In this document: in pieces, positions 23,559 to 26,109 of the stretch
Position numbering within the stretch: the first letter of the stretch is position 1
Layout: each line of letters starts with the position of its first letter
IMG/VR virus record: IMGVR_UViG_3300037423_002135
Span: 1 to 26,109 of that record
DNA from: a virus
Lineage: Duplodnaviria > Caudoviricetes
Length of the DNA: 26,109 nt
Reading direction: 5' to 3' (one strand)
Position numbers and translations under genes: made by a program
Notes under the pieces: model-generated
What the model saw: only the letters and a program-made list of their open reading frames with translations
What the model was told of the DNA's origin: nothing
The model's database searches: none

Positions 23559-23714
23559 TCACTTCTTCTTGTCGGCCTCGCCGGACAGGTAGGCCTCGAA
23601 CTCCCGGGCCGTCAGGACGATGAGCTTGGGTTCCGCTCCGTGCAGCGTGCGCAGGTGTTCCAGAGCCAGCTGCAGAGCGCGTTCCCTGATTATGAGTTTC
23701 CTATTATTGAACAT
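23559..23714 (-). CDS. 51-aa helical hypothetical protein
   Basis: MFNNRKLIIRERALQLALEHLRTLHGAEPKLIVLTAREFEAYLSGEADKKK. The ATG follows 2 nt after the upstream stop, with GGAG upstream. This is the credible part of track ORF 23559..24329. Confidence 0.65.
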   Translation of the reverse strand: MFNNRKLIIRERALQLALEHLRTLHGAEPKLIVLTAREFEAYLSGEADKKK

Positions 23715-23716
23715 AA

Positions 23717-24268
23717 TCAGCCGTGCTCCGGCAGCACGTACCAGTCCTCGGCCAGCACGTCGGTCTGCGAGGCGAGCCAGGGGACCACCGCGCTGCCCAC
23801 CGTCTTCATGGCGATGTAGGCCAGGTAGGGCACCAGGCCGTCGGGCTGTTCGGAAGCGATGATGCGTCCGGCTTCGGTCGACGGCGGGTAGCGTCCCGGG
23901 CCGACGTGATAGATGAACATCCCCTTGCCGTTCCAGCCCGAGCGGGCGATGCGGCGGCCGTTCTTCAGATGCGCCAGGGCGGTGCCGAAGCTCAGGCAGT
24001 CCAGAGGGACCGACGTGGTCTCCATACGGGTGTAGCCGTCCTCGAACGCCTGCTTCGGGGAGAAGCTCTGATAGCCGTCCTCGTAGACCACCAGATAATC
24101 CCCCGGCTCCGGGGTGTAGCGGGCGAACAGCTTCGGGTCGAACTCTTCGAAGGTGGTGATCTGACCGTCGGCCTGAACCAGAGACAGGGAGTGCCCGGAC
24201 ACCCAGGAGATCTCGGCGGCGGTGACCACCTTGTGCGAGCGATACTGGTTGAAGCGGGTGAGGTCCAT
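23717..24268 (-). CDS. tad2: Two-domain protein: uncharacterised N-terminal domain fused to a Tad2/DUF2829 (Thoeris anti-defence sponge-like) domain
   Basis: The C-half LSFGTALAHLKNGRRIARSGWNGKGMFI...YIAMKT..VVPWLASQTDVLAEDW is the DUF2829 signature. The N-half reads YRSHKVVTA...PGDYLVVYEDGYQSFSPKQAFEDGY. Confidence 0.85.
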   Translation of the reverse strand: MDLTRFNQYRSHKVVTAAEISWVSGHSLSLVQADGQITTFEEFDPKLFARYTPEPGDYLVVYEDGYQSFSPKQAFEDGYTRMETTSVPLDCLSFGTALAHLKNGRRIARSGWNGKGMFIYHVGPGRYPPSTEAGRIIASEQPDGLVPYLAYIAMKTVGSAVVPWLASQTDVLAEDWYVLPEHG

Positions 24269-24282
24269 CAGGGTTTTCCTTA

Positions 24283-24516
24283 TTAATCCTGTTCGTAGCG
24301 GGGCTGGCTGCCGACGCCGACCACGACACCGGCGGCGTCGAGCTCCAGCCAGGAGATGTCGGGACGGCTGGTGCCCGCCGCCCCGTGCAGTTTGACGAAG
24401 CCTGTCCCGACTCCGGCGAACACGTCCTTGCCGCGGCGGTAGACCTTGGCCTGGCGGTAGACGCCCTTACTCCGGAGCAGCACCACCCCGTCGTCGATCA
24501 CATGGAACAGGTCCAT
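24283..24516 (-). CDS. 77-aa hypothetical protein
   Basis: Tightly packed between neighbours; GGAGGA RBS; beta-rich and basic (GVYRQAKVYRRG). Confidence 0.7.
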   Translation of the reverse strand: MDLFHVIDDGVVLLRSKGVYRQAKVYRRGKDVFAGVGTGFVKLHGAAGTSRPDISWLELDAAGVVVGVGSQPRYEQD

Positions 24517-24520
24517 CGGC

Positions 24521-24889
24521 TCAGTCCTCCGCCCGCGCGCCGGAGAGACGATCGGCCAGGGCGTAGCCCATCAGCGGCCAGATCTGCTCGAAGGCGTTCT
24601 TGTAGGCGATCTCTTCGCCAATCTTCGGATCGAAGTTCTCGGCGCTGACGCAGGCGCTCTGGCCGGTGACGGTGAAGCCGTTCTTCAGAACCAGGACGCA
24701 GAAGGTCAGCCGGTTCAGGGAATCGGACGGCCCGGCCGGACGGACGCCGACAGCTTGCTCCGCGCCGTCCCCGGCGGTGAAGAACCAGGTGCCGATGATG
24801 TTGTCCTGCACGTCCTGCAGGGTGACCCGGGGAGCCTTGCTCTGCTCGGCCAGCCGGGTTTCGAGATTTTGCTCGTCCATTATGGACAT
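24521..24889 (-). CDS. acb4: N4 Gp49 / Sf6 gp66 family protein (Acb4-like anti-CBASS sponge candidate)
   Basis: APRVT...LTFCVLVLKNGFTVTGQSACVSAENFDPKIGEEIAYKNAFEQIWPLMGY is the Gp49/gp66 family signature. The link to Acb4 is from recollection and needs an HMM check. Confidence 0.75.
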   Translation of the reverse strand: MSIMDEQNLETRLAEQSKAPRVTLQDVQDNIIGTWFFTAGDGAEQAVGVRPAGPSDSLNRLTFCVLVLKNGFTVTGQSACVSAENFDPKIGEEIAYKNAFEQIWPLMGYALADRLSGARAED

Positions 24890-24929
24890 TCCTTTCGAAG
24901 TTAATGCGGTCTGGGTTTTGTAGTTTCTT

Positions 24930-25190
24930 TTACGACGCCGGTTCGTAGGTGGCGGCGAAGATGTCCGGATGGCAGGGATAGAGCTCTCCCTTGACCCCGC
25001 GGATGATCCAGCTACCCGGGTCCGCCCACATCACCCCTTCCAGAGTGTGGATCAGGAGCTTACCCGGCTCGAACGTCACCGTGCCCGCCTTGATCGCGTC
25101 CACGATCCATTGCGGATCTTCGGGCTGGTGTTCGTCACCAGTCCACTGGAAGGCCTCGATCACCACCGGCTTCTTGCGGAACTGCCCCAT
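24930..25190 (-). CDS. Widespread small phage protein of the 'RKKPVVIEA...TLEG...GxWIIRGVKGExYPC' type, function unknown
   Basis: 86 aa; GAGG RBS; the motif is recognisable as common in phages. Confidence 0.8.
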   Translation of the reverse strand: MGQFRKKPVVIEAFQWTGDEHQPEDPQWIVDAIKAGTVTFEPGKLLIHTLEGVMWADPGSWIIRGVKGELYPCHPDIFAATYEPAS

Positions 25191-25197
25191 CGGAACC

Positions 25198-25416
25198 TCA
25201 GCCCAGAACCAGCAGCACCAGCCAGAACACCACCGCGGCGTAGGCCAGCTTCCACACCAGGCTGAGCCCGTGGTTGACCAGGCCCTCGGCCCAGTCGGCG
25301 AGCCCGAAGTACTTCTTCTGGTCGAGCCAGACGAAGGCGTGCTTGACCACCCAGTCGGTGACCAGATGCGCGGCGAGGATCCCCGCCAACAGCACGAGAT
25401 ACGCGAGGAGGTGCAT
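25198..25416 (-). CDS. 72-aa membrane protein with two predicted TM helices
   Basis: ATG at 25416 after AAAGGAAG is preferred over the track start at 25521; hydrophobic segments lie at both ends. Confidence 0.65.
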   Translation of the reverse strand: MHLLAYLVLLAGILAAHLVTDWVVKHAFVWLDQKKYFGLADWAEGLVNHGLSLVWKLAYAAVVFWLVLLVLG

Positions 25417-25419
25417 GTC

Positions 25420-26109
25420 GCTTCCTTTCCCAGATAATCGACGGTTGGGATTTAGATAACCTTTTGTCGAATATGGCAAGCCATTATCAAGGGAACCAGG
25501 AGCAGGAAGCTGGACAAGCACCCCCCTCCTGTGGCTTTCTCCCCTCGGCAGCTACCCCTATCTACGCCCCTTCCCCAGGACTGGCCTACACTTTCCCCCC
25601 TTAAAATATAAGGAAGGAAGGGTGATGGGCCTATTGTCCAGACCTCTCCTGCGGAGAGGATCCGGACCATTCGAGGGGGAACTCTCTCCCACCCGCTTAT
25701 ATAGAATATCATTAAAGATATTTTATATAATATATTATTATATAATATTATATAGAAAACATTATCCTTATTAGTAGCCCCACCGATTATCATGATTATG
25801 TAGATAATCATTATTTATTTAATCGGGTTGGGGGAAAAATCTCACAGAAGTCTGGGTGCTGATTAACTTATATAATATTATATTATTATTAGGGTTAGGG
25901 CAAAAATATTATAGAAGTCTGGGTGCAGGTTCACACCGTTCACACCTGTCGCACTGAACCCACCCCCCCGGGTAGGTCTCAGCACACCGGGCACACTCCC
26001 CCTGGTGCCTTCTGAACCCTGGGCGCTGCGCGCCTTGCGGATCATCGGATGACGCTCATCCCTGATCGTTATCCCGTTAATCAGCGAGTTAATCCGTCCC
26101 GCTGGTTCC
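25420..26109. promoter_or_regulatory. Non-coding control / probable genome-end region with an extreme AT-rich core
   Basis: No credible ORF; nearly pure A/T tracts at ~25697-25775 and ~25862-25891 in an otherwise GC-rich genome; repeats and C-tracts; lies upstream of all minus-strand genes. Confidence 0.6.
25825..25926 (+). repeat. Imperfect 35-bp direct repeat (two copies, 67-bp period)
   Basis: 25825-25859 GGGTTGGGGGAAAAATCTCACAGAAGTCTGGGTGC versus 25892-25926 GGGTTAGGGCAAAAATATTATAGAAGTCTGGGTGC: 30/35 identical, last 14 nt exact. Confidence 0.9.

Follow-up and report, generated by a model that had tools for sequence, protein, structure and literature searches.

The window analyzed here is a 26,109-nucleotide stretch of viral DNA (positions 1 to 26,109 of IMG/VR record IMGVR_UViG_3300037423_002135; Caudoviricetes). 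Two small domains encoded in it, one forming an 86-amino-acid (aa) stand-alone protein (hereafter A) and the other preceding the Tad2 sponge domain of a 183-aa protein (hereafter B), are very probably homologous, as two long-diverged members of one unnamed superfamily. The new elements are the link between these two large subfamilies and the tie to the crystallized and partly tested N-terminal domain of RyR Tad. The homology is likely and a function as a sponge for nucleotide signals is plausible, with one published negative result standing against the latter.

Both open reading frames (ORFs) were located on the minus strand where they had been predicted, at 25190-24930 (86 aa) and 24268-23717 (183 aa), and a purine-rich, ribosome-binding-like stretch lies 5' of each. 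The C-terminal pattern of the original prediction, G-x-[WY]-h-h-x4-G-x9-F-x3-Y, was recovered with identical spacing in A (G59 to Y82) and B (G56 to Y79). Its proposed “PG” start held for the glycine but not for the proline directly before it, as the families keep [A/P]-x-x-G instead; the proposed N-terminal motif is present in both proteins, but has one residue fewer in B. Among non-redundant domains, 67 of 77 in the A family and 58 of 108 in the B family contain the C-terminal motif, which was absent from 1,032,105 residues of background ORFs; these counts yield no clean P value because the motif was defined after A and B had been inspected. At two near-invariant sites of its family, the window's copy of A has another residue (S60 instead of D, H74 instead of K).

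Direct comparison did not relate the two domains. HHalign, proposed earlier as one check on their relatedness, gave no significant match between A and B (0.1% probability, and 0.6-9% with deeper alignments); the BLASTP match was not significant (E 21), and hidden Markov models (HMMs) of the single families produced no cross-matches. In a shuffle control with 60 fully shuffled B profiles, one outscored the real A-B pair by a wide margin and another slightly. At the level of sequence, the kinship is visible only by way of a bridging subfamily.

The source of this bridge was a scan of viral contigs for the shared motif in which the A-typical and B-typical residues at one position were excluded. 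Of an estimated 370 or so stretches, 120 were listed. The majority of these were diverged proteins resembling A, and 12 constituted a subfamily that resembles A at its start and B at its end. A 10-sequence bridge profile aligned in HHalign with A at 87.5% probability (E 3.6e-6, 77 columns) and with B at 99.3%. The probability for A was 95.2% with 61 bridge sequences recruited by their own patterns rather than by the shared motif, and 93.0% with 148 representatives from an exhaustive search. The alignments to A spanned 76-79 columns, and the probabilities for B were 99.3-99.5%. Because bridge members had been picked by motif, decoy controls were carried out. With the motif fixed and the other columns shuffled, none of 60 decoys reached the real bridge-to-A score (best 29.1 vs. 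33.4), and the unselected N-terminal part of the bridge, by itself, aligned to the first strand of A with an E of 5e-4. Reciprocal HMM matches were few. Of the 77 A members, 6 were found with the bridge profile; in the other direction, the A profile at E<0.01 picked up 12 of the 61 and 26 of the 148 bridge members. The window's A copy reached just 3.1 bits with the bridge profile, whose best E among background ORFs was 2.0.

The predicted models of A and B were confident (mean predicted local distance difference test scores, pLDDT, of 90.5 and 95.9, respectively) and finish alike, with two strands and a short helix. Their middles differ: A has a helix at residues 27-35 and a three-strand meander, whereas in B the first strand is longer and a helix occupies residues 45-50. 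The original proposal that the two are distant relatives, with one fold present twice, is thus supported transitively, through the bridge and the matching predicted C-terminal secondary structure.

B was also found to be homologous to the N-terminal domain of RyR Tad (gp68 of Pectobacterium phage vB_PatP_CB1), with a profile E of 6.6e-14 over both motifs and an HHalign probability of 98%. As in the B-Tad2 protein, this domain stands ahead of a sponge in an N4-like phage; it differs from B in its shorter middle and in having an RyR domain, not Tad2, as its partner. There was no direct profile match between it and either A or the bridge subfamily, and A is tied to it only via the bridge and B. 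The RyR Tad preprint describes the N-terminal domain as a strand-swapped dimer of unknown function that is often a single ORF; in the portions available, it draws no link from this domain to other sponges, Dec or family A (10.64898/2026.06.04.730250). B was also fused to RyR domains in L040, L049, L078, P0216, P0268, P0287 and P0295, with Acb4 between the two in three of them; RyR domains are reported as sponges or cyclic ADP-ribose (cADPR) glycosidases (10.64898/2026.06.04.730250; PMC13232231).

Evidence on function came chiefly from gene fusions, in which the domain is mostly N-terminal. The partners of A or B relatives were Tad2, Acb4, Sequestin, Acb2/Tad1, Lockin, RyR, Tad3, Tad5, MazG and NADAR. 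Among the top 120 of the long B proteins (248-509 aa), 50 contained a Pfam match, which was Acb4, Sequestin, Tad2, Acb2/Tad1, RyR or Tad3 in 47 and DUF5131, Uma2 or a weak SURF2 in the other three; seven of the 70 without a Pfam match carry a precomputed Acb2/Tad1 label. The 79 longer proteins of the 148 bridge representatives were also scanned. The second Pfam domain found in 24 of them was a sponge in 21 and another family in three, and one scanned protein had a weak PGDYG match only. A was fused to Tad2 and NADAR in the loci examined, and Atlas clusters show it with Tad2 and Acb2/Tad1. The supplementary tables published by Tal et al. (10.1101/2025.07.12.664507; PMC12265669) contain proteins in which A precedes Lockin (as a separate domain) and others in which it precedes Sequestin. 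A protein of Vibrio phage KF6 annotated as MazG (L163:5644-6828) has the order Tad5-B-MazG, and many related Vibrio phages match the same region. In Klebsiella phage SJM3 (L162:2501-3376), a single 291-aa chain reads B-A-Sequestin, and five proteins read B-A-Tad2 with or without Sequestin. With these six tandem B-A chains ahead of Tad2 and/or Sequestin, the two-gene pairing of the window recurs as one polypeptide. Fusion to many sponges in other phages makes it likely that the domain is a further counter-defence module, and some anti-defence role is considered probable.

As a specific mechanism, signal binding is a candidate to which a probability of roughly 40% is assigned. A and B would be small phage beta-barrel domains with a predicted OB-like (oligonucleotide/oligosaccharide-binding) fold that dimerize as the RyR Tad N-terminal domain does. 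Each would have a pocket holding a nucleotide-type immune signal other than that of type I Thoeris, each subfamily likely preferring its own ligand, and the whole would be a self-contained module against defence, shuffled by phages in the way sponges are. A small shared ligand would explain two features, namely that A retains 40-60% identity among phages from four host phyla and that each subfamily conserves a polar residue set of its own on one scaffold (a pattern inflated by recruitment). Ligands that differ by subfamily would fit the conserved polar residues, which differ between the subfamilies. Conserved basic residues are R5-K7 in A and H12-K13 in B.

Some findings weigh against signal binding. 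The term “candidate sponge” used in the original prediction gains by association, given fusions with at least six sponge families, and loses by the behavior of a homologue: the gp68 N-terminal domain alone failed to block type I Thoeris (10.64898/2026.06.04.730250), which argues against 3'cADPR as the ligand, at least for the gp68 branch. The domain has a negative net charge, a poor fit with the pockets of known sponges, which carry positive charge (PMC13712596). Most copies have neither a known sponge nearby nor a long extension. Where known sponges do occur, their closeness speaks for the association: among non-redundant loci, 12 of 70 for B and 7 of 76 for A have one fused to the domain or lying within 1.5 kb, against 2 and 1 loci further out, where more DNA was covered.

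Alternatively, the domain may bind a protein and not a nucleotide. Its target would then be a defence sensor or effector, which it would block, or a head protein, on which it would dock so as to mask the trigger or carry a fused sponge to the source of the signal. The OB-fold of Dec docks on capsids, head genes adjoin several copies (an uncontrolled observation), and Tad3 and Tad5 act on protein partners, a defence sensor or effector (PMC13728456); even so, we regard protein binding as unlikely. A dimerizing or stabilizing scaffold that has no ligand of its own, and that lends fused sponges avidity, solubility or expression, would account for the N-terminal place in most fusions and for the strand-swapped RyR Tad domain, which is dispensable for anti-Thoeris activity (10.64898/2026.06.04.730250). 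That scaffold agrees with the crystal structure, but the many stand-alone copies speak against it, as does the polar residue set that each subfamily retains. Partners such as Tad2 and Acb4 oligomerize by themselves (PMC13712596), and the tandems of A and B within one chain beside sponges are expected of independent modules, not of one redundant linker; a pure scaffold is judged quite unlikely.

More doubtful again is a mobile passenger role, in which the domain, carried in small-gene islands, does an unrelated job (for instance on single-stranded nucleic acid or a metabolite) and fuses with sponges only through the islands they share. OB folds often bind nucleic acid, IF1/eIF1A and cold-shock domains were among the weak fold matches, and the partners include MazG, NADAR, DUF5131, Uma2, QueE-annotated proteins and many unnamed tails. 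Against this stand the Pfam-nameable partners, which belonged to anti-signal families in 47 of 50 and 21 of 24 cases, in our estimation far above the expectation for shared islands. The nuclease activity that had also been proposed belongs here and found no backing, as no nuclease fold stood out among the fold matches, which were OB-like and weak.

The phage is N4-like, and its capsid protein shares ca. 80% identity with the counterparts in Sinorhizobium phage ort11 and Klebsiella phage KP8. The portal and terminase genes come after the capsid gene, and the run of small genes that contains A and B (Table 1) lies upstream of all three on the same strand.

Table 1. Features of the small-gene cluster (positions in the window)
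Feature	Position	Strand	Assignment
72-aa hydrophobic ORF, first of cluster	25198..25416	-	without family
A: 86-aa stand-alone gene, subfamily A	24930..25190	-	PHROG 419/1810/4502; relatives weakly PGDYG-like
Acb4-family sponge gene	24521..24889, likely start 24880	-	Pfam PF13876, E 5.4e-28; PDB Acb4 9e4w, E 0.0013
77-aa gene between Acb4 and B-Tad2 fusion	24283..24516	-	without Pfam match
B: N-terminal domain, residues 1-82, subfamily B	24023..24268	-	RyR Tad N-domain homologue; predicted Dec-like OB fold
Tad2 sponge domain, about residues 89-179 of 183-aa gene 24268-23717	23732..24004	-	Pfam PF11195; PDB ModTad2 9eib, E 2.4e-19
51-aa gene, last of cluster	23559..23714	-	phrog_26515, E 0.0017

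The Tad2 domain of the B-Tad2 protein scored above the PF11195 cut-off (residues 93-179, E 3.6e-24) and matched a solved Tad2. Likewise, the Acb4 gene (24889-24521) was above the cut-off of PF13876, the Pfam family that corresponds to Acb4 (10.1101/2024.12.30.630793), and matched 9e4w. The same Pfam scan gave no match for A and none for B. Relatives of the 77-aa gene (24283-24516) were present in 20 phage records, the hosts being mainly Rhizobium and Sphingomonas; by its position, this gene is a further anti-defence candidate, and its relatives hint at an alphaproteobacterial host. Upstream of the cluster, a very AT-rich non-coding stretch (25720-25930) in an otherwise GC-rich genome is likely a control region; a sigma-70 scan of it found nothing above chance.

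Several observations were made in other phages. A directly precedes the capsid scaffold gene in L081, L090, L093, L097 and L107, with an Acb2/Tad1-like gene just ahead of A in L097. The region of the core motif apparently occurs twice in the L181, L209 and L258 proteins, which are PGDYG-like tandem forms. In P0179, P0190, P0191, P0194, P0260 and P0286, B is fused to one unnamed helical domain (W-x-W-x-C-N-L-A-C) that has no Pfam match and that, by the same fusion logic, is another candidate. P0343 combines a bridge-type domain and the start of a P22-like portal match in one chain, which could be an artefact of gene calling.

The superfamily is large. A had 6518 relatives of near length and, at a loose cut-off, was matched in 1119 of 50,697 phage records. 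A separate estimate gave 7000 or so viral stretches, and the bridge profile yielded 1055 clusters at 50% identity. The fusion screen that found Sequestin queried Pfam families, and the A/B domain has no Pfam model. A wider proposal, which we consider somewhat unlikely, is that this is the largest unnamed anti-signalling family of phages. Thousands of phage proteins would contain its Dec-like OB barrel, and its subfamilies would capture different, possibly undescribed messengers and would be strung with Tad2, Acb4, Sequestin and RyR into multi-signal traps, Dec being an offshoot of the same fold. Testing would be cheap because the domain occurs in phages of standard laboratory hosts. A ligand, if found, would define a new sponge fold and might lead to an undescribed immune signal of bacteria, whereas a protein partner would reveal the way in which sponges are targeted or assisted by phages.

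Among solved structures, the best candidate match of B, by both sequence profile and fold, was the N-terminal OB-fold (residues 10-90 compared) of the phage L decoration protein Dec (PDB 6e3c; PMC6449081), which was also the only match of the bridge profile (E 1.2). Dec has a C-terminal trimer spike after the OB domain, whereas A stops after the domain and B runs into Tad2. Weak matches to PGDYG (PF14083) came from 34 of the 61 A members scanned, with a best E of 0.0018, and from one bridge member (E 3.8e-4, 21.2 bits, the best in any relative); all of these fall under the gathering score of 27 bits, and the window's proteins gave none. A PGDYG-labelled cluster is a structural neighbor of B (template-modelling score, TM, 0.59), and a full-text search for the PGDYG name returned plant peptide matches only. 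Beyond the RyR Tad preprint, the portions available of the literature consulted neither name nor test the A/B family (10.1101/2024.12.30.630793, 10.1101/2025.08.24.671296, 10.64898/2026.07.21.739742, 10.64898/2026.08.10.744029, PMC13232231, PMC12578639).

The Pfam models of Tad2, Acb4, Acb2/Tad1 and Sequestin had no match in A, B, 61 A relatives or 57 B relatives; Tad2 (PF11195) and Acb4 (PF13876), both encoded in the cluster, are partners of the domain and not its relatives. Lockin, Acb5 and TadIV-1 were not listed in the sequence and fold searches of the PDB (whether the libraries hold their entries was unchecked). Like the phage nucleotide-signal sponges in general, the A/B domain is a small phage protein that is stand-alone or fused to other sponges. 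Sequestin (PF21825), identified through Pfam families as a fusion partner of Tad2 and Acb4 (10.1101/2025.07.12.664507), is helical and a proven 3'cADPR binder, whereas the A/B domain is beta-rich, with a putative ligand; both are small, mostly stand-alone and often fused to other sponges.
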